This document shows positions 12,397-24,306 of a DNA stretch of 64,000 nucleotides, piece by piece. The first letter of the stretch is position 1. Every line of letters begins with the position of its first letter. Source of the stretch: Chloroflexota bacterium (GTDB taxonomy: Bacteria; Chloroflexota; Dehalococcoidia; Tepidiformales; Tepidiformaceae); the NCBI GenBank assembly GCA_026702615.1, contig JAPPBY010000013.1, positions 27,521 through 91,520 on the forward strand, given 5' to 3'. The translations under genes were made by a program, and so were the position numbers. The notes beneath the pieces were generated by a model, which was not told the DNA's origin, ran no database searches, and saw only the letters and a program-made list of their open reading frames with translations.

Positions 12397-13872
12397 CTAG
12401 ATGCCGAGCTCGCCCCACAGCTCGTTCGCCTGCTTCTGCAGGTCGGCCCGGAAATCGGGATGCGCCACGCTGACCAGCTCGGCGGCGCGCTGCCGGTGGT
12501 TCTTGTCGAGCAGCCTCGCCACACCGTACTCGGTCACGATCGTGTCCGCCAGGTAGCGCGGGATCGTCACGAGTGTTCCCGCTTCGTGCTTCGCCACGAT
12601 CTTCGAGAGCGAGCCCTCGATCGCCGTCGAGCGCAGCACCGTGATGGCGCGGCCATCGGGGCAGAGGGCCGCGCTGATGTGCGTGTCCGGCTGCCCGCCC
12701 GTCCCGTTGATCATCTGGCCGCCGTAGCGGTCCTCGCTCGCGATCTGCCCCAGCAGGTCCACCGCTACCGCGCTGTTGATCGAGGTCATCTGGCTGTTCT
12801 GCGACATCAGCGCCGGGTTCAGCAGGTAGTTCGGGTCGTACACCTCGAACGCGGGGTTGTCATTGATGATCCCCAGGTCCACGCCGTCGCAGCCCGTCCA
12901 GGCCACGGCCACGCAGCGCTCCTTGTGGATCGTCTTCCGCGAGTTGTCGATGATGCCCCGCGCCCAGAGCTGCGCCAGCCCCGGCGATCCCAGCTCGGTG
13001 TGCACGCCCAGGTGTTTCGCGTGATCGAAAGCGCCCGCCTTGAACATCAGCGCGCTGGGCGTCCCCACCCCTACCTGGATCGTGTCGCCGTCCCGGATCA
13101 GCGGCGCGAGATTGTCGGCGATCGCCTGCGCCTCGTCGTCGACCTCCGCAAGGCCGAACGCCTGCCGCACGATCTTCGGCGGGAGCATGTGGTACATGCT
13201 CTCCGCCAGCGCGATCTGGTCGGGGCTGGCCATGTCCAGCAGTTCCAGCAGCTCCGCGCGGTTCTCCTCGGGCGCCTGCGTGTTCACTCGCTCCCGTACC
13301 GCCTCGGCGTTCACCGGCTGGATCACGCCCTCGATGAACGCTGCGAACTCGCTCACGTGCACCCACACGTCGCCGTGCGCGGGCGTGATATTCGGGTCGA
13401 TCATCCCGATGGTCCTGGGGCAGCGCTTCGTGTACGACTTGCGCGTCCACATGTGTACGCCGAACTGCACGTAGCCCGCGTCATTCGGCTCACTGCACGA
13501 GGTGATCTGCACGTCCGGAAGGCGCGCCTCCTCGCGGCCCGCGTCGAACGCCTTCATACCCAGCATGAAGGTGTTCGGCAGGTAGGTTCCGATCTTGGCG
13601 TCGTGCGCCGCCCGGAGCGGCTCGCCGATGAACAGCTCGAACTCGCGCTCGCCGTTCTGGCCGGGACTGAAGAGCCGCGGCTCCGTTGGCGAGAGCGCGC
13701 GCACGTGCATGCTCCCCAGCTGGTCGGCGCGGTCGGCCAGGGCCGAGGCGAGTTGCGCGGGCGTCAAAACACCCATCGTTACCAGGTCGCCGTCGCCGAT
13801 GAGCGCCATCGCCTCCTCGACGCTGCAGAGGCGCTCCTTGTATGCCTCCCGCCAGTCTCCTGAGTGCGTCAT
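12397..13872 (-). CDS. Acetyl-CoA hydrolase/transferase family protein (4-hydroxybutyrate CoA-transferase-like)
   Basis: 491 aa with two-domain CoA-transferase architecture; segments IQVGVGTPSALM, INSAVAVDLLGQI. Confidence 0.75.
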   Translation of the reverse strand: MTHSGDWREAYKERLCSVEEAMALIGDGDLVTMGVLTPAQLASALADRADQLGSMHVRALSPTEPRLFSPGQNGEREFELFIGEPLRAAHDAKIGTYLPNTFMLGMKAFDAGREEARLPDVQITSCSEPNDAGYVQFGVHMWTRKSYTKRCPRTIGMIDPNITPAHGDVWVHVSEFAAFIEGVIQPVNAEAVRERVNTQAPEENRAELLELLDMASPDQIALAESMYHMLPPKIVRQAFGLAEVDDEAQAIADNLAPLIRDGDTIQVGVGTPSALMFKAGAFDHAKHLGVHTELGSPGLAQLWARGIIDNSRKTIHKERCVAVAWTGCDGVDLGIINDNPAFEVYDPNYLLNPALMSQNSQMTSINSAVAVDLLGQIASEDRYGGQMINGTGGQPDTHISAALCPDGRAITVLRSTAIEGSLSKIVAKHEAGTLVTIPRYLADTIVTEYGVARLLDKNHRQRAAELVSVAHPDFRADLQKQANELWGELGI

Positions 13873-13882
13873 GGCCTCGCTC

Positions 13883-14275
13883 CTAGGTGAAGTTGAAGTT
13901 GAACCCCCGCGGATCCTCGTACGAGGGCGGCTCGGGCTTCTTGTACTGGACTTCGATCTCGTCTGTGTCCTCGTTGTAGCGCACCGGGAAGGACGCGACC
14001 GGCCGGAACGCCGGCAGCGACTTCGCCGCGCCGTCCCGCACGTCGAACTTGGCGCCGTGGCGGGGGCAGTCGATCTCGTAGCCGACGAGCCTGCCCTGGC
14101 CGAGCGGTCCGTCGTCGTGGGAGCAGCGGTTCTCGATCGCGAAATACCCCTCTACGAGGTGGACGAGCACGATCGATTCGTCTCCGAACTCGATGATCGC
14201 GCTCTCGCCCGGCTTCAGCATGTTCGCGGGCCCTACCGGCGTGAAAGGTGTCTCGCTGTCGGTCTGCTCGCTCAT
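13883..14275 (-). CDS. Rieske [2Fe-2S] ferredoxin component
   Basis: Rieske ligands CSHDDGPL...CPRHGAKF. 130 aa. Confidence 0.85.
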   Translation of the reverse strand: MSEQTDSETPFTPVGPANMLKPGESAIIEFGDESIVLVHLVEGYFAIENRCSHDDGPLGQGRLVGYEIDCPRHGAKFDVRDGAAKSLPAFRPVASFPVRYNEDTDEIEVQYKKPEPPSYEDPRGFNFNFT

Positions 14276-14301
14276 CCGCTCGTGCTCCTCCCGTGAGGCA
14301 A

Positions 14302-14330
14302 GCGAGCCGCGACCATGGGCCGCGGCTCGC
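14302..14330 (-). other. Intercistronic GC hairpin between the Rieske alpha and ferredoxin genes
   Basis: GCGAGCCGCG-accatgggc-CGCGGCTCGC: a 10-bp perfect stem. Confidence 0.4.
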
Positions 14331-14351
14331 CGGTGCGGTCTCGCGCCGGTC

Positions 14352-15632
14352 CTAGCGGTCCGGCCCGTAGATGTAGTCGTCGATCGTCTTGTGCATGTGA
14401 CGGATGCGCCGCTCGCGGTAGTTGATGAGCAGCCCCTTGTAGGCCCGCGAGTTCATCCCCTTCTGCACGCGCGGCAGATTGTAGGAATCCTGGTCGAGGA
14501 CGAGTCCGATGGAGATCTCGCCGTGCTTGTACGTCGTGTGGGCCGGTCGCGGCGGCGGGTCCGCCCCATCCGGAATGCGCGTGTAGTTCTGCAGGTCGAA
14601 GTACATCTTGTTCGGGTCCGTCGCGTGCGGACGCTGCCGGAACACCATCACGCCTGTGTGGTGCGTGTTCAGCGTGATGCTCGGGAAGATGTAGTAGTGG
14701 TAGTCGTCCGTCATCTGGTCGTCGTTGAGCTCTGAGACGTCGATCCCGCGCGCTTCCGTGCTCTCGCGGGCCGCTGCCTGCATCATCGTGCGGACTTCTT
14801 CCGGCGCCCCGTCGAACTCATCCGGGTCGATCCCCGCCCGCACCAGCATGCCTTGCAGCGCGTCCGTGATTTCGTCCTTGTTCGGGTAACGCGGGCTCAG
14901 CAGCCCGAACGGCACCAGGTAGCGGTTGTGGCGCTCGTACAGGTCGATCTGCACGTGGATGTCGTCCAGCGACTCCAGCAGCTGCGGGTGGATACCCTGT
15001 ACGTGGTAGACCTCGTTGAAGGCGTCTACCGAGGCCTTCCAGTTTGTGTCCCACTCGATCGTCTTGTCCTGGACGATGTACATCTTCTCGAAGTGGTACG
15101 GATCGATGTGCTCCGGCAGCACGCCCAGGAACTCTTCGAGGGGCTCCGCGTCCGGGTTCATGTTGAACCAGACCCAGCCCGCCCAGGTATCGCACGGCAC
15201 TTCGACGAGCGCCGTCTCCTGGGGAACGCCCTGGGTGAAGGTGTCCTCGTCCGGGACGAACTTCTTCGAACCGTCGAGGTTGAACTCGAAGAAGTGGTAG
15301 GCGCACTGGAAGCTCTCCGCATGCCCCATGCCGGGGTTGCGGATCTGGTTCCCGCGGTGGGGACAGACGTTGTAGAAGGCGCGGACCTTGTCCTCCGCCT
15401 CCCGCACGATCAGGAACGACTCGGGACCCAGCTCGGTGGTGAAGTAGTCACCCACGTTGGGGATGTCCTGCTCCCGCCCGGCGACGTTCCACACCTTCGT
15501 CCACATGCGCTCCCACTCGAGCTCCATGAACTCCTTCGAGGTGTAGCGTTCCTTCGGGATCAGCTCCGTGCCCAGCAGAGGCTCCGGCGCCTTCTCCTGG
15601 GGGGTGCCCTTCACTCGTGCTTCAACAACCAC
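14352..15632 (-). CDS. Rieske non-heme iron oxygenase, alpha (catalytic) subunit
   Basis: Rieske motif CPHRGN...CAYHFFEF and a catalytic-domain His/Asp region (DAFNEVYHVQGIHP). GTG start is preceded by AAGGAG. No beta-subunit gene is nearby. Confidence 0.85.
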   Translation of the reverse strand: MVVEARVKGTPQEKAPEPLLGTELIPKERYTSKEFMELEWERMWTKVWNVAGREQDIPNVGDYFTTELGPESFLIVREAEDKVRAFYNVCPHRGNQIRNPGMGHAESFQCAYHFFEFNLDGSKKFVPDEDTFTQGVPQETALVEVPCDTWAGWVWFNMNPDAEPLEEFLGVLPEHIDPYHFEKMYIVQDKTIEWDTNWKASVDAFNEVYHVQGIHPQLLESLDDIHVQIDLYERHNRYLVPFGLLSPRYPNKDEITDALQGMLVRAGIDPDEFDGAPEEVRTMMQAAARESTEARGIDVSELNDDQMTDDYHYYIFPSITLNTHHTGVMVFRQRPHATDPNKMYFDLQNYTRIPDGADPPPRPAHTTYKHGEISIGLVLDQDSYNLPRVQKGMNSRAYKGLLINYRERRIRHMHKTIDDYIYGPDR

Positions 15633-15732
15633 GCCTTGACTCCTTGGACTCTTGTCCGTTTCGATTACCCGGGTGCCTGGCGACGGGTAGCCGGATTTTA
15701 CGCGAAACAGGTCCGGCCCGCCCCTCGGGCGG

Positions 15733-16251
15733 CTAGTACGAACCCGGCGTGGGCACGATCTCCGTGCCCATCTCCTCCGGCTCCATCCCGAGCGTGATGA
15801 GCACCTTCGAGAGGCTCATGAAGAGCCCCACGCCCAGCGCCATCTCGACGATCTCGGGGTCGCTGAAGTGCTCCCGCAGCCGCTCCTGCACCTCGGGCGT
15901 CACCTGTCGCGGATCCCCGATGATCGCATCCGTCAGGGCGATCGCCGCCTTGTCCTTCGAGGACAGGTCCGACTCCTCGTAGCCGTCCTCAATCTCCGTT
16001 ACCTGGTCTTCGGTCAGTCCCTGCTCACGCGCCACGGCGAAGCGAACGTTCTTTCAGTAGCCGCAGTCCGTCACGCGGGCGTTTCGCATCCGCGTGACCT
16101 CCTTTGTGCGGTGGTCAAGGGCGCCCTTGCTCCAGAACGTCCCGTAGAGCATCCCGAAGGCGCCCGCCAGGCCCGGCTGGTGCGCCAGCGCCGTGCCGAA
16201 GCTGGCCTCCTCGCCCGGTATCGCCGAACTCACTCGTGGTTTGGTCGACAT
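15733..16251 (-). CDS. AhpD-like / carboxymuconolactone decarboxylase family protein with an in-frame TGA at 16054..16056 (candidate selenocysteine; otherwise a pseudogene)
   Basis: Track ORFs 16054..16362 and 15733..16035 share one frame and are separated only by a TGA plus six sense codons. The joined product reads ...RMRNARVTDCGY[TGA]KNVRFAVAREQG... and is colinear with the upstream paralog. ATG at 16251 is preceded by GGAGGA. Confidence 0.55.
16017..16047 (-). promoter_or_regulatory. Stem-loop 6 nt downstream of the in-frame UGA (SECIS-like candidate)
   Basis: mRNA GUUC-GCUU-CGC-[CGUGGC]-GCG-U-GAGC-AG-GGAC. This gives 11 bp including two G-U pairs, one bulged U, a 2-nt internal bulge, and a GU in the apical loop. 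Folded by eye only. Confidence 0.35.
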
Positions 16252-16270
16252 CGCATCCTCCTTCGGGACA

Positions 16271-16771
16271 TCAGTAGATTGGCCCCTCGCTCGAGGCCGG
16301 CATCGGCGCCTCCACCGGCGCGGGCTCCGTGCCCAGCGCCAGTCGCAAGCGGCAGTTCGCATCGAACAGCGCCACCCCGATGGTTAGCGCCACCACGCCC
16401 GACTCGCCGAAGTGCGCGTTCAGGTTCGCGTACTCCTCGTCGGTCAGGTCGTGGTGCTGCCAGGGCATCTTCTCGGCCAGCGTCAGCGCGGCTTGCTCCT
16501 GCTCGCTGAACAGGTCGCTGCCCGCCCAGTCCGCGAGCGCCTCGACCTGCGCGTCCCTCACGCCGGATTCGGCGTGGCGAACGGCCAGCTCAGCCTCGCA
16601 GTCGTGCAACTGCGCGACCCGCAACCGGCACAGCTCGAGCAGGCTCGCGGGCAGCAGCTCCTCATCCCAGAGCTTCCCGTAGAAGGCCGCGTACAGATCG
16701 CGCAACTCGGGCCGCAGGCCCAGAGCCGCATCGAACGGCGCGCTTCCCTCTGCCCCTTCGAGCCAGGTCAT
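16271..16771 (-). CDS. Carboxymuconolactone decarboxylase (AhpD-like) family protein
   Basis: LLELCRLRVAQLHDCEAELAVRH aligns with the CxxC region of the family; here the motif reads C-E-A-E. Start taken at MTWLEG; a TTG at 16807 is an alternative. Confidence 0.7.
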   Translation of the reverse strand: MTWLEGAEGSAPFDAALGLRPELRDLYAAFYGKLWDEELLPASLLELCRLRVAQLHDCEAELAVRHAESGVRDAQVEALADWAGSDLFSEQEQAALTLAEKMPWQHHDLTDEEYANLNAHFGESGVVALTIGVALFDANCRLRLALGTEPAPVEAPMPASSEGPIY

Positions 16772-16819
16772 GGGCGCATTCTCAGCCCGCGACCCCACCC
16801 GCCGCAACGCCGCCCCGTG

Positions 16820-17338
16820 TCAGGTCGCCGCCACCTGCGGGATTCGCACCCGTCCCAGCCGCTGCGCGACCTCGGTGATCCCTACCGCGAAGGTCGCCGG
16901 GATCAGCTCGCCCCGCTCGATTGCCGCGATGAACATCGGCAGGATCGTCAGCAGCACGCGGATTCGCACCGACTCGCGCGCGTGCCACTCCTCCGACACC
17001 CGCCCCTCGGCCACCATCTCTTCGAGGTCCTTCGGCAGGTAGACCCCGCCCCGGCGCGCGTACGCCATCGTCGCGACGACCGCCATCGCCCGTGGGTCCA
17101 AATCCGTGCGGTGGAAGCCGGCGCTCTGGCTGGCCGGGAACCGCTGGATCGCTCCCTGGACGTTCTGGTGCAGCGCCTCCGCCTCCACGGCCGCCCCTGC
17201 GATGGCCCCTTCCGGGTCCTCCAGCTCCGACGTCAGCAGCGCGCCCCCCGCCAGCTCCGCCTCCGCCGCAGCCGTCACGTCCTCAATGCTGGCCCCCTCC
17301 GCGGAGAGGGACTTCAGGTGGTCGATCAGCGCGCCCAT
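16820..17338 (-). CDS. Hypothetical protein (172 aa), co-directional between lpd and the AhpD-like pair
   Basis: An ORF with a non-repetitive, protein-like sequence that fills the gap in a co-directional operon. I recognise no motif. Confidence 0.5.
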   Translation of the reverse strand: MGALIDHLKSLSAEGASIEDVTAAAEAELAGGALLTSELEDPEGAIAGAAVEAEALHQNVQGAIQRFPASQSAGFHRTDLDPRAMAVVATMAYARRGGVYLPKDLEEMVAEGRVSEEWHARESVRIRVLLTILPMFIAAIERGELIPATFAVGITEVAQRLGRVRIPQVAAT

Positions 17339-17407
17339 GACCGCCTCCGCGATCGCGTCCTGCCCCTACTGTACAGCCGGGAGAAGCCCTCGGCGGCGCC
17401 GGAAGGG

Positions 17408-18805
17408 CTAGACGTGCAGCACCCGGTCGTAGGCGTCGAGCACCGACTCGTGCATCGCCTCCGAGATGGTCGGATGCGGGAACACGGTCTCCATCAGCTC
17501 CGCCTCGGTCGTCTCCAACCCCATCGCGACGACGAACCCCTGGATCATCTCCGTCACGTCCGGGCCCACCATGTGCGCCCCGAGCAGCTCGTCCGTATCG
17601 GCGTCGAAGACCGTCTTCACCATGCCGCCCGTGTCGCCCACGGCGATCGCCTTGCCGTTCCCGACCAGTGGGAAGCGCCCGACGCGCACGTTGAAGCCGG
17701 CTTCCTGGGCCGCCGCCTCGGTCAGGCCCACGCTCGCCACCTGCGGGTGGCAGTAGGTGCAGCCGGGGATGCGACGCCGCTCCATCGGCCGCGCCGAGGG
17801 CAGCCCCGCGATGCGCTCCACGCAGATGACGCCCTCGTGCATTGCCTTGTGGGCCAGCAGCGGCGGCCCAGCGACGTCGCCGATGGCGTACAGCCCCGGC
17901 TCGCCCGTCTCCAGCCACTCGTTCACGACGATCGCCCCGCGGTCGACCGTGGCCGCCGTCGTCTCGAGCCCGAGGCCCTCGACGTTGCCCGTCACGCCCA
18001 CGGCCAGGATCGCGCGGTCGAAGGTCGCCTCGACCGTGCCGTCCTCGGTCGCAATCGTGGCCGTCACGCTGTTGTCGCCCTTCTCGAGCGACTCCACCGT
18101 GGCGTTCGTGTGCATCGTGATGCCCTGCTTCTCGAACTCCTCGCGGGCGAAGGCCGAGATCTCCTCGTCCTCCACCGGCAGGATGCGGGGCAGCACCTCC
18201 ACCACCGTTACCTCCGCCCCGAGCGACCGGTAGAAGCTCGCGAACTCGACGCCGATCGCCCCCGACCCGATGACCAGCAACGAGTCTGGCATCGTCGCCG
18301 GCACCATCGCTTCCTTGTACGTCCAGACCAGCTCGCCGTCGGGCTCCAGGCCCGGCAGCGAACGCGGCCGCGCGCCCGTCGCCACGATGACGTTGTCGGC
18401 GCCCAGCTCGGCCACGGTCTCGCCGTCCTTCTCGACGACGATCCCGCCTCCGCCCGTGAGTCGCGCCGCCCCGTCGAACACCTGGATCTTGTGCTTCCGC
18501 ATGAGGAACTTGACGCCGCTGTTGAGCTGGCGCGCCACCGACCGCGAGCGGCTCACGACCTTGTCCAGGTCGAACGAAGCCTCCGCCGTCAGGCCGTAGC
18601 GCTCGGCGTCCTGCATCTCGCGATACAGGTCGGCCGTGTGCAGGAGCGTCTTCGTGGGAATGCAGCCCCAGTTCAGGCAGATGCCACCCAGGTGCTCCCG
18701 TTCCACGAGCGCCGTCTCCAGCCCGAGCTGGGACGCGCGAATCGCGGCGACGTAGCCGCCCGGGCCGCCTCCCACCACTACGACATCGAACGTTGTTTCC
18801 GCCAT
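17408..18805 (-). CDS. lpdA: Dihydrolipoyl dehydrogenase (E3)
   Basis: FDVVVVGGGPGGYVAA, redox-active GGICLNWGCIPTK, and C-terminal HPTISE. ATG at 18805 is preceded by GGGAGGG. Confidence 0.95.
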   Translation of the reverse strand: MAETTFDVVVVGGGPGGYVAAIRASQLGLETALVEREHLGGICLNWGCIPTKTLLHTADLYREMQDAERYGLTAEASFDLDKVVSRSRSVARQLNSGVKFLMRKHKIQVFDGAARLTGGGGIVVEKDGETVAELGADNVIVATGARPRSLPGLEPDGELVWTYKEAMVPATMPDSLLVIGSGAIGVEFASFYRSLGAEVTVVEVLPRILPVEDEEISAFAREEFEKQGITMHTNATVESLEKGDNSVTATIATEDGTVEATFDRAILAVGVTGNVEGLGLETTAATVDRGAIVVNEWLETGEPGLYAIGDVAGPPLLAHKAMHEGVICVERIAGLPSARPMERRRIPGCTYCHPQVASVGLTEAAAQEAGFNVRVGRFPLVGNGKAIAVGDTGGMVKTVFDADTDELLGAHMVGPDVTEMIQGFVVAMGLETTEAELMETVFPHPTISEAMHESVLDAYDRVLHV

Positions 18806-18816
18806 CCTGCCCTCCC

Positions 18817-20205
18817 CTAGACCAGCAGCCGGAACGGCGCTTCGAGGTAGTCGCGCACCGACGCCAGGAACTGCGCCGCCGGCGCCCCGTCGAGCGCGCG
18901 GTGGTCCCAGGTCAAGCTCAGCGTCATCGCCTTCTGCCGCACGGGACGCTCCCCCTCCCAGCGCACGTCGTCGCGCAGGCGGTTCACCCCGAGGATGCCC
19001 ACCTCGGGCGGGTTGAGGATGGGCGTGAACGAGTCCACCCCGAACATGCCCAGCGTCGACACGGTAAACGTGCCGCCGGCCATGTCGTCGAGCCCGAGCT
19101 TCCCTTCGCGCGCCAGCCCCGCAAGCCGCGAGGACTCGAGCGCGATCTCCTTCAGCCCGAGCTGGTCGACGTGCCGTACTACGGGCACGACCAGCCCCTC
19201 GTCGAGCGCTACCGCCATGCCCACATGCACCTCGCCCCGCAGGTTCATTTCCGTGCCGAGGAACTGCGCGTTCATGCGCGGGTGGTCTAGCAGGGCCTTG
19301 GCCGCCGCCTTCATCACGATGTCGGTGTAGGAGGGGCGCACGCTGTCGCCTGCCCACTCCTCGATCAGCTGGCTGCGCAGCTTCACGCAGTCGTCCATGG
19401 CCACGTCCATGTCCATGGTCAGCTGCGCCGTCTCCTGCAGGCTCGCGTACATGCGCTCGGCGATGACCTTGCGCATGCCTCGCACGGCCATTACCTCGTC
19501 TTCGTGTGCCGCTGCTGGAACGGCGGGAGCCGCTGCCGGAGCAGCCGCGGGCGCGCCACCCGCTGCCGCCGCCTCAACGTCTTCTCTTGTGATACGCCCG
19601 CCGGGGCCGGTCCCCGCTACCGTCGACAGGTCGATGCCCAGCGCCTCCGCTCGTTTCCGTGCCAGCGGCGAGGCCGGCGCCGGGGCGCCCGCCGGAGCAG
19701 CTGCGGGCGCGGCTGCTGCCGCTTCGTGTGCGGTGCGCACGTCGTCTTCGGTCACGCGCCCGCGCGGTCCTGTTGCCGTAACAGTGGCGAGGTCCACGCC
19801 AAGCTCTTTCGCAAGCCGCCGCGCGGCCGGCGAGGCCGGCACACGCTCGCCCTCGGCTCGCGCCGGTGCGGCCGGAGCTGCGGCTGTCGCAGCTGCCGGC
19901 TCTGCTGCTGCGGGAGCGGCGTCCGCCGCTGGCGCGCCGCCTCCCGGCAGCACATCCGGAATCTCTTCGTCGGCGGCGTAGATCCACCCCACGACCGCTC
20001 CCGGATCGACGGTGGCCTCGGCCGGCACCAGGTGACGCACGATGCCCGCGGCTTCCGCCTCGACCTCCATCTCGACCTTCTCGGTCTCGAGCCGGTAGAG
20101 GTCCTCGCCGAGCTTCACCTCGCCGCCGTCGGGGATGTGCCACTCGGCTACGGTTCCCTCCGTCATGGTCATGCCGAGCTTCATCATGTAAATCTCGGTT
20201 GGCAT
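18817..20205 (-). CDS. Dihydrolipoamide acyltransferase (E2) with one lipoyl domain and two peripheral-subunit-binding domains
   Basis: Lipoyl motif LETEKVEMEV. Two PSBD-like segments (SPAARRLAKELGVDLATVTATGPRGRVTEDDV and SPLARKRAEALGIDLSTVAGTGPGGRITREDV). Catalytic DHRALDGA. Confidence 0.9.
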   Translation of the reverse strand: MPTEIYMMKLGMTMTEGTVAEWHIPDGGEVKLGEDLYRLETEKVEMEVEAEAAGIVRHLVPAEATVDPGAVVGWIYAADEEIPDVLPGGGAPAADAAPAAAEPAAATAAAPAAPARAEGERVPASPAARRLAKELGVDLATVTATGPRGRVTEDDVRTAHEAAAAAPAAAPAGAPAPASPLARKRAEALGIDLSTVAGTGPGGRITREDVEAAAAGGAPAAAPAAAPAVPAAAHEDEVMAVRGMRKVIAERMYASLQETAQLTMDMDVAMDDCVKLRSQLIEEWAGDSVRPSYTDIVMKAAAKALLDHPRMNAQFLGTEMNLRGEVHVGMAVALDEGLVVPVVRHVDQLGLKEIALESSRLAGLAREGKLGLDDMAGGTFTVSTLGMFGVDSFTPILNPPEVGILGVNRLRDDVRWEGERPVRQKAMTLSLTWDHRALDGAPAAQFLASVRDYLEAPFRLLV

Positions 20206-20206
20206 C

Positions 20207-21254
20207 TCATCCCCCGTCCTGTTGGAGTTGCTGTTCCTCTGGCGAGCCGCCGGCTGCCTCGTCGTTGCGATACAAACCCACGCACGCTGCGTACTCCAGC
20301 GTCGCGTGGACGTCGATGACCCAGGGACCATCCCGGGCTACTCGGAGTGTAGCCGCTTGCCCCGGTTTCAACACACGCTCGCGTTCGCCGTCGAACGCGA
20401 GCACCCCCGGTCCCGCCACGGTGACCGGTTCCCCGAGCGGGAGTCGTGCGTGTGAACGCACGGCGATGGGCTCGTACAGCCCCGGCGCGATCGGCGCGAG
20501 CAGGGAGACGCCCCCCTCGCCGGGTCCGAGCGTCAGGTGCAGCGCCTCGTCCTCGTCCGGCGTCAGCGGCGCCAGCAAGCCCCCGATGGAGGTGATCCCC
20601 ACCGCAGACGGCTCCGCCCTTGTGACGACTGCCTCGCGCAGGCGCTGTCCGCCCCAGATCGCGCGTGATCCAACGAACCGGTCTGCCGCCAGCACGGCAT
20701 CGACGAGGGCGATGTCGTCTCGTTCGCCCTCGATCTCGACGTGCACGGCCTTCACCTGTCTCGCGACCCGCTCCAGCGGCACCCGGCCGCTCGCCACGAG
20801 CCCCGCTGCCGAGCCCGCCACCGTCGCCTCGACCATCGTCGGGAAGACGTTGTTCGTGCCCGTCGAGACGGGCACGAGGGGCGCGTCCCGCCAGCCGAGC
20901 GCGAAAGCCCGGTTCGTGCCGTCGCCACCGAGCGTGATGACCGCTCCGCAACCCTCTGCCCGCAGCGATTCCGCCGCGCGGATGGTGTCGAGCGTACTCG
21001 CGGTGTGCGTCGCCTCCACGGCGACGAAGGTGGCCTCGTCGCCGAACTCCTCGGCCGCCGCCGCCGTAATGCCGTGCGTGTCGGGCATGTACCGGAAATC
21101 GCGCACACCACTCGCGAGCGCGCCCACGATGGCGCGCCGCACGATCGCGCGCTTCTCCTGGTTGTCGAAGACCGACGCGCGCGCAACGAGGCGGCGGATG
21201 TCCTTCCCCGAAGCGGGGTTCGCGGCGATCCCGAGCGGGAGTGAGCTGGTCAGG
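20207..21254 (-). CDS. ATP-NAD kinase-like (AcoX-type) protein; start codon unresolved
   Basis: GGDGT motif (VITLGGDGTN). The first canonical start is GTG at 21142, but a family-like N-terminus (LGIAANPASGKDIRRLVARASVFDNQEKRAIV) lies upstream with only CTG/ATC codons, in frame with the E1beta stop. The stop is 1 nt from the E2 ATG. Confidence 0.6.
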
Positions 21255-21256
21255 GC

Positions 21257-22261
21257 CTAGCCCAGCCCGAGGATGCTTCGCGCCTCGGCCGCAATACGCT
21301 CGGCGTTGGGCACGTACGTCTGCTCCAGCACCGGGCTGAACGGAACCGGCGAGAACGGCGCCGCCACGCGGCCCACGGGCGCGTCGAGGTGGTCGAATGC
21401 CAGCTCGGCGATCTGGGCCGCGATCTCCGCGCCCACGCCGCCAAAGCGGACCGCCTCGTGCACCACGAGCGCGTTATGCGTCTTCGAGACCGAATCGATG
21501 ATCGTGTCCGTATCCAGCGGCTGCAGCCACAGCGGGTCGATCACCTCGGCGCTCACACCCTCGCCCTCGAGGATGTCGGCCGCCTTCGTGGCCTCGTGGA
21601 TCATGCGGCCGTGGGCCACGATCGTGAGCCCGTCGCCTTCGCGCCGCACTACCGCCTTGCCGATGGGGAGATCGTAGGGCTCCTCCGGTACCTCGCCCGG
21701 AAGCGCCATCAAGCCCTTGCACATCACGACGAACACGGGGTTCGGCTCGCGCGCGGCGGTAATGATCGCGCCCTTCACGTCGTACGCCGTCGCCGGCATC
21801 ACGACCTTCAGGCCCGGAGTGTGGCACAGCCACGCCTCCAGGCTCTGGGAGTGCTGCGCCGCCAGGTTCATGCCCGCGCCCGACATCGTCAGAACGGTCA
21901 CTGGCAGCGTCGCCTTGCCGCCGAACATGTACCGCATCTTCGCGAGCTGGTTGACGATCTCATCCATGCACTCCCCGATGAAGTCCATGAACATAATGTC
22001 GACGATTGGCTTGAGGCCCGTGGCCCCGGCCCCCACCGCCAGCCCGATGATGCCGGACTCGCTGATGGGGGTGTCGATCACGCGATCCGGCCCGAACTCG
22101 TCGAGCAAGCCGCGGTAGATGCCGAACACGCTGCCGGCGCCGGCGACGTCCTCGCCGGCCATGAACGCCAGCGGCTCCTCCTGGAGCGCCTGTCGGACGC
22201 CCTCCGTGATCGCGAGGGTGTAAACGAGTTGCCGCCCGGCGGGCGCTTCTGCTGCGGTCAT
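21257..22261 (-). CDS. 2-oxoacid (acetoin/pyruvate/BCKA-type) dehydrogenase E1 component, beta subunit
   Basis: 334 aa. Transketolase-like Pyr and C-terminal domains: MAGEDV...GIYRGL, VIDTPISE, and a GR..H-type segment (VAHGRMIHEA). Confidence 0.9.
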   Translation of the reverse strand: MTAAEAPAGRQLVYTLAITEGVRQALQEEPLAFMAGEDVAGAGSVFGIYRGLLDEFGPDRVIDTPISESGIIGLAVGAGATGLKPIVDIMFMDFIGECMDEIVNQLAKMRYMFGGKATLPVTVLTMSGAGMNLAAQHSQSLEAWLCHTPGLKVVMPATAYDVKGAIITAAREPNPVFVVMCKGLMALPGEVPEEPYDLPIGKAVVRREGDGLTIVAHGRMIHEATKAADILEGEGVSAEVIDPLWLQPLDTDTIIDSVSKTHNALVVHEAVRFGGVGAEIAAQIAELAFDHLDAPVGRVAAPFSPVPFSPVLEQTYVPNAERIAAEARSILGLG

Positions 22262-22271
22262 TGGTTCGCTC

Positions 22272-23270
22272 CTAACTCGCCGCCGTGGGCGTGTAGACGT
22301 CGTTGAGCAGGTCCGCCGGATCCGGCAGCGGGCTGTTCTCGGCGAATTCGATCGATTCCGTGATGTCGGCCATCACCGCGTCGTGCACCGCCTGGATCTC
22401 TTCCTCGGTCATGACGCCCATCTCGACGAGCCGCTTCTCGTGCTGCTCGATCGGGTCGCGCTTCTTCCACTCCTCGAGTTCCTCGTCGGTGCGGTAGTTC
22501 AGGCCGATGCCGCGCAGGCCGACGTGGTCGACATAGCGGTACGTCTTGCACTCAACCAGCGTGGGACCGCCGCCCGAGCGCGCTCGCTCGATCGCTTCGC
22601 CCGCGGCCTCCCAGACCGCGACCGCGTCCATGCCGTCGCAAATGACGCCCGGCATGCCGTAGCCGGCCGCACGGTCCGCGATGTCGCTGATCGCCTGGTG
22701 GTCTTCCTGGCGGGTGAACTCGCCGAAGCCGTTGTTCTCGCAGACGAACACTACCGGCAGCTTCCAGATGGCCGCCATGTTCGCGGCCTCGTGGAATGCG
22801 CCCTCGTTCGTCGCGCCGTCGCCGAAGAAGGGGACGGCGACGTTCATCGAGTCGCGTCCTGCGATGCGGGCGAGGTACTTGTTCGAGAAGGCGGCGCCCA
22901 CGGCGATCGGCGGTCCTGCCGCCACGATGCCGTTCGCGCCGAGCATGCCCGCATCCACGTTCGAGATGTGCATGCTCCCGCCGCGGCCCTTGTTGTAGCC
23001 GGTCTCCCGGCCGTACAGCTCCGCGTACATCTTCTTGAACTCGCCGCCCTTGGCCACCAGGTGTCCGTGGCCGCGATGCGTGCTCGTGATCTGGTCCTGG
23101 TCGCTGAGGTGCACCATCACACCCGAAGCGACTGCTTCCTCGCCGATGTACAGGTGCAGCGCCCCCGGCGACTTGCCCTGTTCCATCAGCTTGCCCGCCT
23201 CTTCCTCGAAGTGGCGAATTCGCACCATCCGGAAGTGCAGGTCCTGCAGGACCTCTTCGCTTGGTTCCAT
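22272..23270 (-). CDS. 2-oxoacid dehydrogenase E1 component, alpha subunit (TPP-binding)
   Basis: TPP motif FFGDGATNEGAFHEAANMAAIWKLPVVFVCENNG. Start set at ATG 23270 (MEPSEE); GTG at 23291, preceded by GGAGGA, is an alternative. Confidence 0.85.
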   Translation of the reverse strand: MEPSEEVLQDLHFRMVRIRHFEEEAGKLMEQGKSPGALHLYIGEEAVASGVMVHLSDQDQITSTHRGHGHLVAKGGEFKKMYAELYGRETGYNKGRGGSMHISNVDAGMLGANGIVAAGPPIAVGAAFSNKYLARIAGRDSMNVAVPFFGDGATNEGAFHEAANMAAIWKLPVVFVCENNGFGEFTRQEDHQAISDIADRAAGYGMPGVICDGMDAVAVWEAAGEAIERARSGGGPTLVECKTYRYVDHVGLRGIGLNYRTDEELEEWKKRDPIEQHEKRLVEMGVMTEEEIQAVHDAVMADITESIEFAENSPLPDPADLLNDVYTPTAAS

Positions 23271-23411
23271 TGCCTGGCTGCTGTTGGCCACGGCATCCTC
23301 CGTGCACAGTGGGATAGGGACGCCGTCGCGGGCGTCCGAGCGCCCGAGCATCGTACAGGACCACTCCGACACGACAAAGGCGCGGGGCCCCTACCCGCCT
23401 GCACTTTCGTA

Positions 23412-23443
23412 GCAGTGCGCGACTCTCTAGAATCGCGCACTGC
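23412..23443. promoter_or_regulatory. Near-perfect 32-bp palindrome in the divergent E1alpha/SDR intergenic region
   Basis: GCAGTGCGCGA-ctctctagaa-TCGCGCACTGC: 11-bp perfect arms, 14 of 16 positions symmetric. It embeds a TAGAAT -10-like hexamer at 23428..23433. Confidence 0.5.
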
Positions 23444-23508
23444 CAAACAGGCGGCCGCGGCCCTGGATCCGCCCGGTCGCACCCAATAACTAGGGAGGTT
23501 CCCACACC

Positions 23509-24306
23509 ATGGATCTTGGACTGCAAGGCAAGAAGGCCCTCGTCACGGCCGCCAGCCAGGGCATCGGCAACTTCATCGCGAACACCCTCGCCGCCGAAGG
23601 CGCCGATGTCGCCATCTGCGCCCGCACCGCGGAGCGGGTTGATGCCGCCGTCGAGGGGCTTAAGTCCCACGGCACCAACGTCTGTGGCGCCGCCTGCGAC
23701 GTCGGCGACGGCGACGCTCTCAAGGCCTGGGTCGAGGCCAGCGCCGCCGAGCTCGGCGGCATCGACATCTACGTCAGCAACGCCTCCGCCGGTGGCGGCG
23801 GCTCGCTCTGGAACGAGCACTTCGCCATCGACATGATGGGCACCGTCAACGGCGTCGATGCCGCCCTCCCGTTCCTCACCGAGTCGGAGGCCGCCAGCGT
23901 CGTCGTCATCAGCACGTCGGCTGCAGTCGAGGCCTTCCCGCCGCCGCCGGCGACCTCCGCCGGCGCCTACGGCGCCATGAAGGCCGCCCTGCTCAACTAC
24001 GCGTCCTTCGCTGCTCAGCAGCACGCGCCTGCGGGCATCCGCTTCAACGTCGTGTCCCCCGGCCCCACCTACTTCGAGGGTGGTCCGTGGCACAACATCG
24101 AGCAGGCCATGCCGCCGTTCTTCGAGATGATCGCGAACGGCATCCCCCTGCGCAGCAAGAGCAAGCCCGACACCCTCGCCGGCCAGATGGGCAGCGGCGA
24201 AGAGGTGGCGAACGTCGCCGCCTTCCTCGCCAGCCCGGCTTCCAGCCACACCACCGGCGTCAACGTCGTCGTCGACGGCGGCTTCACCCGCCGCGTCGCC
24301 TTCTAG
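23509..24306 (+). CDS. SDR-family oxidoreductase
   Basis: KKALVTAASQGIG glycine-rich motif and YGAMK catalytic motif. GGGAGG Shine-Dalgarno sequence. Confidence 0.85.
   Translation: MDLGLQGKKALVTAASQGIGNFIANTLAAEGADVAICARTAERVDAAVEGLKSHGTNVCGAACDVGDGDALKAWVEASAAELGGIDIYVSNASAGGGGSLWNEHFAIDMMGTVNGVDAALPFLTESEAASVVVISTSAAVEAFPPPPATSAGAYGAMKAALLNYASFAAQQHAPAGIRFNVVSPGPTYFEGGPWHNIEQAMPPFFEMIANGIPLRSKSKPDTLAGQMGSGEEVANVAAFLASPASSHTTGVNVVVDGGFTRRVAF

Follow-up and report, generated by a model that had tools for sequence, protein, structure and literature searches.

An AhpD-like selenoprotein gene and its degenerate partner behind an acetoin-type dehydrogenase operon: a two-gene unit in a lineage-specific position

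Two genes for AhpD-like proteins that lie directly behind the genes for a lipoyl-bearing E2 acyltransferase and for dihydrolipoyl dehydrogenase (Lpd, the E3 component) raise the question of whether their products are tied to this E2 and Lpd in a dedicated, lipoamide-driven redox relay. The genes lie in a stretch of 64,000 nucleotides (nt) from a Chloroflexota bacterium of the family Tepidiformaceae (assembly GCA_026702615.1, contig JAPPBY010000013.1, positions 27,521 to 91,520 of the forward strand), the whole of which is referred to here as the window. An earlier note made from the letters of the window had proposed such a relay, built around a pair of one degenerate and one selenocysteine- or cysteine-active AhpD-like subunit, which we call CMD1 and CMD2. 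The analysis presented here indicates that the in-frame TGA of CMD2 is almost certainly read as selenocysteine (Sec), and that CMD1 and CMD2 very probably constitute a functional two-gene partnership. The position of this partnership behind E2 and Lpd is particular to the lineage, and gene order alone shows no dedicated lipoamide relay. The features of the pair are as follows.

16271-16771, minus strand: CMD1, 166 residues, with the motif C58-E-A-E61 (Pfam CMD, 34.1 bits against a cut-off of 23)
15733-16251, minus strand: CMD2, a predicted AhpD-like selenoprotein of 172 residues, with the motif C63-G-Y-U66 (Pfam CMD, 37.5 bits against a cut-off of 23)
16054-16056, minus strand: the in-frame TGA, codon 66 of CMD2, read here as selenocysteine
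16022-16047, minus strand: a hairpin resembling a selenocysteine insertion sequence (SECIS), apical loop CGUG, -9.8 kcal/mol

Standard calling of open reading frames (ORFs) splits CMD2 at the TGA into fragments of 102 and 100 residues, as would be expected if the codon were a true stop, the gene split or decaying, and the apparent pair one intact degenerate gene accompanied by remnants. Likewise, the 68 nt surrounding the TGA have a minimum-energy fold no better than that of shuffled sequences (z +1.7), and an Rfam scan of positions 14000-24000 at E-values up to 1 finds no SECIS or other relevant family. The conservation of the codon is difficult to reconcile with decay, however. A single TGA occupies the same codon in the CMD2 orthologues of all the congeners searched (24/24, at 84-99% protein identity) and is kept in remoter Chloroflexota forms at 68, 66 and 45% identity. 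In other orthologues the position is taken by Cys: the sister genus Tepidiforma has TGC (50-52% identity, the cultured T. flava included), and Cys stands there in Acidimicrobiia and Erythrobacteraceae as well. Across the 105 codons downstream of the TGA the ratio of nonsynonymous to synonymous substitution rates is 0.06-0.30, which indicates purifying selection past the putative stop. The genome also carries a complete Sec machinery, comprising selA, selB, a selD gene that contains one TGA of its own, and tRNA-Sec (71 bits), all four above their cut-offs.

Because Rfam returns no match and the wider fold does no better than shuffles, the case for a SECIS element rests on a local hairpin and on invariance at synonymous sites. 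A comparison of 18 CMD2 orthologues shows third-position variation in 73% of codons; of all stretches of 11 codons, the one that begins at codon 65/66 has the least synonymous change. The longest run without any variation measures 23 nt (gene nt 208-230) and starts 10 nt past the TGA. It forms part of a hairpin whose distance from the U of UGA is 10 to 34 nt and whose loop contains G/U; Sec forms with 66-68% protein identity have the identical hairpin sequence, and Cys forms do not have it. In four paralogous CMD genes of the same genome, a TGA likewise occupies this motif position, and stronger hairpins follow it at the same distance. A true stop at codon 66 is scarcely credible in light of these data, and the reading of CMD2 as a decaying pseudogene, which the earlier note had considered as a threat to its proposal, is ruled out to the extent that sequence data allow.

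The genome is rich in selenoprotein genes beyond the window. Four more CMD-type genes with a TGA are found at C3:38211-38639, C34:16410-16799, C38:4296-4766 and C31:10926-11399 (C denoting contigs of the host assembly), the TGA-containing selD lies at C8:40194-41129, and four of the 11 genes matching AhpC-TSA have one in-frame TGA (C26:112557-112928, C33:14246-14683, C27:112045-112380 and C27:113160-113495).

The relationship between the two proteins of the pair is apparent from their profiles, which hhalign aligns over the full length at 98.9% probability. In this alignment the Cys residues of the two motifs coincide, and the second Glu of the CMD1 motif falls on the Sec codon of CMD2. An AlphaFold model of CMD1 (predicted local distance difference test score, pLDDT, 82) gives TM-scores of 0.62-0.82 against PA0269, Atu0492 and the AhpD of D. 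radiodurans. Judged from this model and alignment, CMD1 is a redox-dead paralogue of CMD2 that has kept the AhpD fold and lost the redox pair, and it is a probable non-catalytic partner subunit. Even the remaining Cys of its motif survives in few lineages and is lost in Tepidiforma, Acidimicrobiia and Erythrobacteraceae. The invariant residues of CMD1 are instead R49, H56 (just ahead of the old motif), D111, D137 and the C-terminal R141.

The two genes are inherited together. In a scan of the genome collection, a CMD1-like gene directly adjoins the CMD2 orthologue on the same strand at 80 of 80 loci, which are distributed over three phyla (Chloroflexota, Acidimicrobiia, and Erythrobacteraceae and other Alphaproteobacteria). 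The order of the two is not fixed: the CMD1-like gene is upstream of CMD2 at 32 loci, those of Chloroflexota and Acidimicrobiia, and downstream at 48, those of Erythrobacter, Porphyrobacter and other Alphaproteobacteria. The paired genes of Erythrobacter ramosus share nucleotides where the first one stops and the second one starts. A second pair in the host genome itself (C34:16410-17263, locus L044:8297-9429) combines a Cys-less CMD1-like gene with a CMD2-like gene of motif C-F-T-Sec through an ATGA overlap; it is convergent with two genes for major facilitator superfamily (MFS) transporters, and no E2 or Lpd gene lies nearby. The two genes are strictly inherited together, their translation is often coupled, and only one member has lost its redox residues; these points together argue for a two-subunit protein with one active subunit, and on these sequence grounds we moderately favor a physical heteromer. 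The pairing of a degenerate with a Sec/Cys-active gene described in the earlier note is thus borne out well beyond the window.

By sequence, CMD2 is an AhpD-like protein of the single-domain type, and its nearest kin are PA0269 of P. aeruginosa and the YciW-related proteins. Among solved structures PA0269 comes closest (E 1.8e-11) and Atu0492 is also near; these two provide the best sequence match for CMD1 and CMD2 both. Each of the two proteins exceeds the gathering score of the CMD/AhpD-like superfamily (Pfam PF02627). Narrower families exclude them: CMD2 and CMD1 score 46.1 and 47.1 bits with NF053654 (YciW-related (seleno)protein), far below the cut-off of 310, and 41.1 and 24.6 bits with TIGR01926 (peroxidase-related enzyme), below the cut-off of 81.8. 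The site of CMD2 is made up of E51, C63-G-Y-U66 and R70. Glu51 and Cys63-x-x-Sec66 are spaced as Glu118 and Cys130-x-x-Cys133 are in the AhpD of M. tuberculosis, and Sec sits where the attacking Cys133 sits in that enzyme. With respect to the AhpD signature (Glu, Cys-x-x-Cys, x-x-x-His), CMD2 has Glu51, Cys63 and Sec66 and is missing the His. The proton-relay His of AhpD corresponds to Arg70, and this Arg is invariant in all aligned orthologues and paralogues. On the window's contig, CMD2 is not accompanied by ahpC, the gene for the peroxiredoxin substrate that adjoins AhpD proper. The whole contig has no AhpC-TSA match, in agreement with the statement in the earlier note that the window lacks an AhpC-type peroxiredoxin gene, and the 11 matches in the genome are all located elsewhere.

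Comparison with described systems shows which aspects of the pair are familiar and which are not. Selenoproteins of the AhpD-like type with a CxxU site were described long ago and are abundant (PMC1088965, PMC2398784, PMC13188914). The groups 'AhpD-like 1' (COG2128) and 'AhpD-like 2' (PF02627) were recognized in the Sargasso Sea in 2005 (PMC1088965) and in the Global Ocean Sampling data in 2008, and 299 and 70 members are listed in PMC2398784. CMD2 shares with these marine proteins the CMD/AhpD fold, Sec at the second CxxC position, common Cys homologues and a SECIS candidate directly after the codon. The marine surveys dealt with single genes, whereas CMD2 always occurs with a redox-dead paralogue and has Arg in place of the relay His. 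PA0269 and Atu0492 have the same size as CMD1 and CMD2 and a CxxC in the same place, and are the best structural match of the CMD1 model. Their crystal entries contain one protein sequence each, with the motif CxxCxxxH, in contrast to the two diverged, co-inherited paralogues found here, of which the active one has Sec and Arg. The AhpD of M. tuberculosis is a homotrimer of two-repeat subunits with the relay residue His137, and its gene is next to ahpC. CMD2 belongs to the same superfamily as the AhpD of the M. tuberculosis AhpD-DlaT-Lpd-AhpC system and the AhpD/CgAhp proteins of the C. glutamicum system with SucB and Lpd, and has the same spacing of Glu and Cys-x-x-Cys/Sec. The type of reducing system that serves AhpD, lipoyl-E2 plus Lpd, is encoded beside the CMD pair. 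Unlike M. tuberculosis AhpD, the CMD proteins are single-domain and PA0269-like, with Arg for His, a dead partner and no peroxiredoxin gene nearby, and the CMD1 model reaches a TM-score of only ~0.5 against the AhpD structure 1knc.

An architectural counterpart is found in fused AhpD-like proteins with one Cys-less domain, which include 'alkylhydroperoxidases' of Corynebacterium ureicelerivorans and Comamonas aquatica, YciW of E. coli and the eukaryotic sestrins (PMC11429811). These combine an active and a residue-less unit in a single polypeptide, and the same logic may govern CMD1 and CMD2, which differ in being separate and often translationally coupled genes. The view in the earlier note that the arrangement had not been described consequently holds only in part. 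Active and dead AhpD-like units in fused form are known, whereas the literature examined contains no description of the obligate split pairing with a dead paralogue in three phyla, of Arg in place of His at the site, or of the oxygenase context. AhpD-like proteins are among the commonest marine selenoproteins, and almost none has a known partner or substrate. A widespread subfamily defined by a constant dead paralogue, by switching between Sec and Cys and by residence in oxygenase-rich clusters provides a concrete, testable unit, and the Cys-type pairs of culturable Tepidiforma and Erythrobacter make the partnership, its reductant and its substrate accessible at the bench.

The significance of the position behind E2 and Lpd depends on the genes around the pair, which are listed here in the direction of transcription.

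22272-23267, minus strand: E1alpha (Pfam/NCBIfam matches)
21257-22261, minus strand: E1beta (Pfam/NCBIfam matches)
20207-21142, minus strand: AcoX-like gene of NAD-kinase fold (Pfam/NCBIfam matches)
18817-20205, minus strand: E2 acyltransferase (Pfam Biotin_lipoyl, one lipoyl domain; E3_binding; 2-oxoacid_dh catalytic domain)
17408-18811, minus strand: Lpd, dihydrolipoyl dehydrogenase or E3 (TIGR01350, 553 bits against a cut-off of 409)
16820-17338, minus strand: ORF of 172 residues, function unassigned (G+C content at third codon positions, GC3, 0.93)
16271-16771 and 15733-16251, minus strand: CMD1 and CMD2, as above
14352-15632, minus strand: Rieske oxygenase alpha subunit (Pfam/NCBIfam matches)
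13883-14275, minus strand: Rieske ferredoxin (Pfam/NCBIfam matches)
12397-13872, minus strand: acetyl-CoA hydrolase/transferase family protein, a CoA-transferase (Pfam/NCBIfam matches)

The minus-strand order of E2, Lpd, the 172-residue ORF, CMD1 and CMD2 is as the earlier note had given it, including the coordinates and the shortness of the gaps, which measure 5, 69, 48 and 19 nt. A convergent ctaG gene follows the acetyl-CoA hydrolase/transferase gene. The window has a G+C content of ~69%, and the host genome comprises 2.87 Mb in 38 contigs and is 95% complete. All five components of an acetoin-type 2-oxoacid dehydrogenase operon are present (E1alpha, E1beta, lipoyl-E2, E3 and AcoX-like), and E1alpha (338 against 394) and E1beta (311 against 321) do not reach the cut-offs set for the pyruvate dehydrogenase equivalogs. 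The Pfam matches of E2 include two E3-binding (peripheral-subunit-binding) stretches.

Each of the 23 loci from the genus and its nearest neighbour has the complete order from E1alpha to CMD2. Since this whole order recurs in every congener examined, the arrangement is not due to chance. Farther out, the association loosens. In Tepidiforma the dehydrogenase block, the CMD pair and the Rieske gene share one neighbourhood, and a short-chain dehydrogenase/reductase (SDR) gene on the opposite strand lies between the block and the pair; the 172-residue gene is absent, and the E3-like protein, a class-I disulfide reductase, is divergent and reaches 248 bits where the Lpd cut-off is 409. One metagenome-assembled genome (MAG) of Ilumatobacteraceae has the genes P450-CMD1-CMD2 facing Rieske-E2-AcoX-E1beta-E1alpha, with no Lpd in the cluster. 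Six other Tepidiformaceae genera have E1alpha-E1beta-AcoX-E2 and a divergent E3, followed by no CMD pair, 172-residue gene or Rieske gene, from which it follows that the dehydrogenase operon is older than the arrival of the pair and independent of it. Conversely, the pair occurs with no E2 or Lpd gene within 10 kb, or within the sequence available, at ~50 Erythrobacteraceae loci, at 4 of 5 Acidimicrobiia loci and in three other Chloroflexota lineages, namely the Dehalococcoidia MAG SJ161, Chloroflexi GL140 (L074, a contig of only 2.7 kb) and the genome G026. Conservation of the E2-Lpd-hypothetical-CMD-CMD neighbourhood, which the earlier note had put forward as a check, therefore gives a divided answer: the order is kept throughout the genus, and the linkage to E2 and Lpd is mostly absent in other lineages.

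Within the host genome, the Lpd of the window is the only Lpd-type gene, as is its counterpart in a complete, single-contig congener (G013), and two further E1/E2 sets are encoded on contig C15. As the sole E3 of a cell with two further E1/E2 sets, Lpd is shared, not dedicated. Other Tepidiformaceae genera (relatives G080, G158, G428 and G123) have three or four class-I disulfide reductases, among them a canonical Lpd encoded elsewhere and the divergent E3-like gene inside the acetoin-type operon; the present, streamlined lineage seems to have exchanged the divergent operon E3 for the housekeeping Lpd. Three Tepidiformaceae relatives have an AcoX-like gene with one in-frame TGA inside the match (G418:C54:2240-3136, G453:C67:13096-14004 and G433:C10:24091-24984), which could mark a further selenoprotein, stem from an error in sequencing or mean that the gene is broken.

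Genes of oxidative catabolism recur near the pair more often than E2 and Lpd. A Rieske oxygenase is found nearby in four lineages at 33-41% identity, including Tepidiforma, Acidimicrobiia and Erythrobacteraceae, and in SJ161 the pair lies between an SDR gene and a FAD_binding_2 gene. The cluster of Erythrobacter ramosus JCM 10282 (L099:1405-13097) contains a Cys-type pair, a Rieske oxygenase, two P450s and a third CMD gene, together with a KstD-like FAD_binding_2 protein, two SnoaL-fold proteins, a glyoxalase-fold protein and an acyl-CoA ligase. This cluster, in a culturable host, resembles a catabolic island of terpenoid or steroid type.

The explanation of these observations that we prefer, with moderate confidence in it as a whole, is a split selenoenzyme unit that serves oxygenase-rich pathways and has been appended to an older operon. 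CMD1 and CMD2 would assemble as a hetero-oligomer in which CMD2 alone performs the chemistry. The selenolate of Sec66 would attack an oxidised substrate, which may be a hydroperoxide, a sulfenate or a disulfide; Cys63 would resolve the adduct to give a selenenylsulfide; and a dithiol would then re-reduce CMD2. A redox function of this kind is probable for the pair, and its task is likely the reduction of hydroperoxides or disulfides in support of oxidative catabolism. The pair is mobile between genomes, and its neighbours are usually genes for oxygenases of the Rieske, P450 or flavoenzyme kind. The present genus has added it, along with the Rieske oxygenase, ferredoxin and CoA-transferase genes, onto a pre-existing acetoin-type E1-AcoX-E2-E3 operon.

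Several observations weigh against this explanation. The proton relay of AhpD is not conserved in CMD2, where His is replaced by Arg, and so the chemistry may differ from that of AhpD. Membership of all these genes in one operon is predicted from the short gaps and from the lack of terminator-like sites in the minus-strand stretch that runs from Lpd to the Rieske gene. Nor do oxygenase genes surround every copy of the pair: in G026 it is flanked by ftsH, and on C34 it lies beside the MFS transporter genes. Finally, Rieske paralogues ~80% identical to the window's copy occur elsewhere in the genome on contigs that have no CMD homologue.

The candidate reductant that lies nearest to hand would be lipoyl-E2 and Lpd with NADH, which are encoded by the same predicted transcript. 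In M. tuberculosis the lipoyl-E2 DlaT and Lpd reduce AhpD, and yet the ahpD gene is not linked to dlaT or lpd; for this reason the lack of linkage between the pair and E2/Lpd in other lineages is only weak evidence against lipoamide. The AhpD-type proteins of C. glutamicum prefer Lpd/SucB/NADH as their reducing system (PMC10460364). By analogy with these proteins, dihydrolipoyl-E2 is a plausible, though rather doubtful, reductant of the CMD pair. The fuller scheme that can be built on this analogy is an obligate hetero-oligomeric selenoenzyme whose dead subunit supplies binding or relay residues (e.g., His56) and which, in this genus, receives its electrons directly from the sole Lpd and the lipoyl arm that the acetoin-type E2 carries, coupling oxidation of 2-oxoacids or acetoin to reduction of hydroperoxides or disulfides for the oxygenase pathway. 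We consider it quite improbable; if true, it would represent a split, selenium-using counterpart of the sestrin/YciW architecture with lipoamide input.

A dedicated relay, as envisaged in the earlier note, goes further: electrons would leave NADH, pass by way of Lpd and the lipoyl arm on the E2 of the operon to CMD1/CMD2, and end on a further acceptor, with the dehydrogenase being present partly for this purpose. It is consistent with consecutive genes that lie 5 to 69 nt apart with no intervening terminator-like sites, with an order kept in every congener, with a dehydrogenase cluster that also neighbours the pair in Tepidiforma and in one Ilumatobacteraceae MAG, and with the known reduction of AhpD by lipoyl-E2/Lpd in M. 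tuberculosis and C. glutamicum (PMC10460364). Dedication is nevertheless difficult to maintain, as the cell's sole E3 must also supply two other E1/E2 sets, the operon exists without the pair in six genera, and the pair exists without E2/Lpd in Erythrobacteraceae, at 4/5 Acidimicrobiia loci and in three Chloroflexota lineages. The two supporting neighbourhoods are themselves imperfect: the Tepidiforma blocks are split by the opposite-strand SDR gene, with a divergent paralogue as the E3-like gene, and the Ilumatobacteraceae cluster is without Lpd. We judge such a relay unlikely, since adjacency to E2/Lpd in one streamlined genus provides no ground for reading one. A different possibility is that the pair is itself an enzyme of a catabolic pathway, for example a thiol/selenol-dependent reductive dehalogenase (Bmp8-like) or a PcaC-like decarboxylase or isomerase acting on an oxygenase intermediate. 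The recurrence of the unit in catabolic clusters with oxygenases, SDRs, CoA-transferases or acyl-CoA ligases would suit such a role, the debrominase Bmp8 is among the relatives (sequence E 0.016; structure TM-score ~0.62), and the genus, probably UBA2991 of the Tepidiformaceae, is reported from marine water and sponges (PMC10284905). The similarity to proteins of the Bmp8/PcaC type is, however, much weaker than that to PA0269/Atu0492. Decarboxylase chemistry does not need Cys or Sec, yet the CxxC/U site is invariant, and the different neighbourhoods have no single pathway in common. A catabolic enzyme of this kind is accordingly an improbable identity for the pair, and a split selenoenzyme in support of oxidative catabolism remains the reading that we prefer.

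Two products of the locus had been suggested as electron acceptors of the pair, and neither is retained. The 172-residue ORF is a real gene by codon statistics, its GC3 being typical of real genes in this genome. The protein has no match in Pfam, NCBIfam or the PDB sequences, and an exhaustive search finds only 53 clusters of its family among 1.8 billion representatives, making the family small and unnamed. The AlphaFold model is all-helical and of low confidence, with a pLDDT of 67, and Foldseek returns nothing at E < 1 with it. The protein also shows no similarity to the ORF at the equivalent place in Tepidiforma. Since the gene is restricted to this genus and its nearest neighbour, its product is not a conserved acceptor or partner of the pair. 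A paralogue lies at C8:256479-256805 (L048:10279-10812), directly behind a luciferase-like monooxygenase gene and a SnoaL-like gene.

The Rieske system takes one-electron donors and has a ferredoxin reductase elsewhere, a protein of the Reductase_C type encoded on contig C22 of the host genome, and is therefore set aside as the acceptor. Lpd was also considered as a Rieske-ferredoxin reductase and rejected: it and the E3-like protein of Tepidiforma are class-I disulfide reductases with a CxxxxC disulfide, and the reductase on C22 is available. Nor is the Rieske oxygenase a KshA-like steroid hydroxylase, as its nearest solved relative is the carnitine monooxygenase CntA, matched over the N-terminal half only. 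The genome contains at least 13 paralogues of the Rieske alpha subunit (two copies on C18, five on C8, and others on C10, C11, C13, C36 and C26), four of which are 78-81% identical to the copy in the window.

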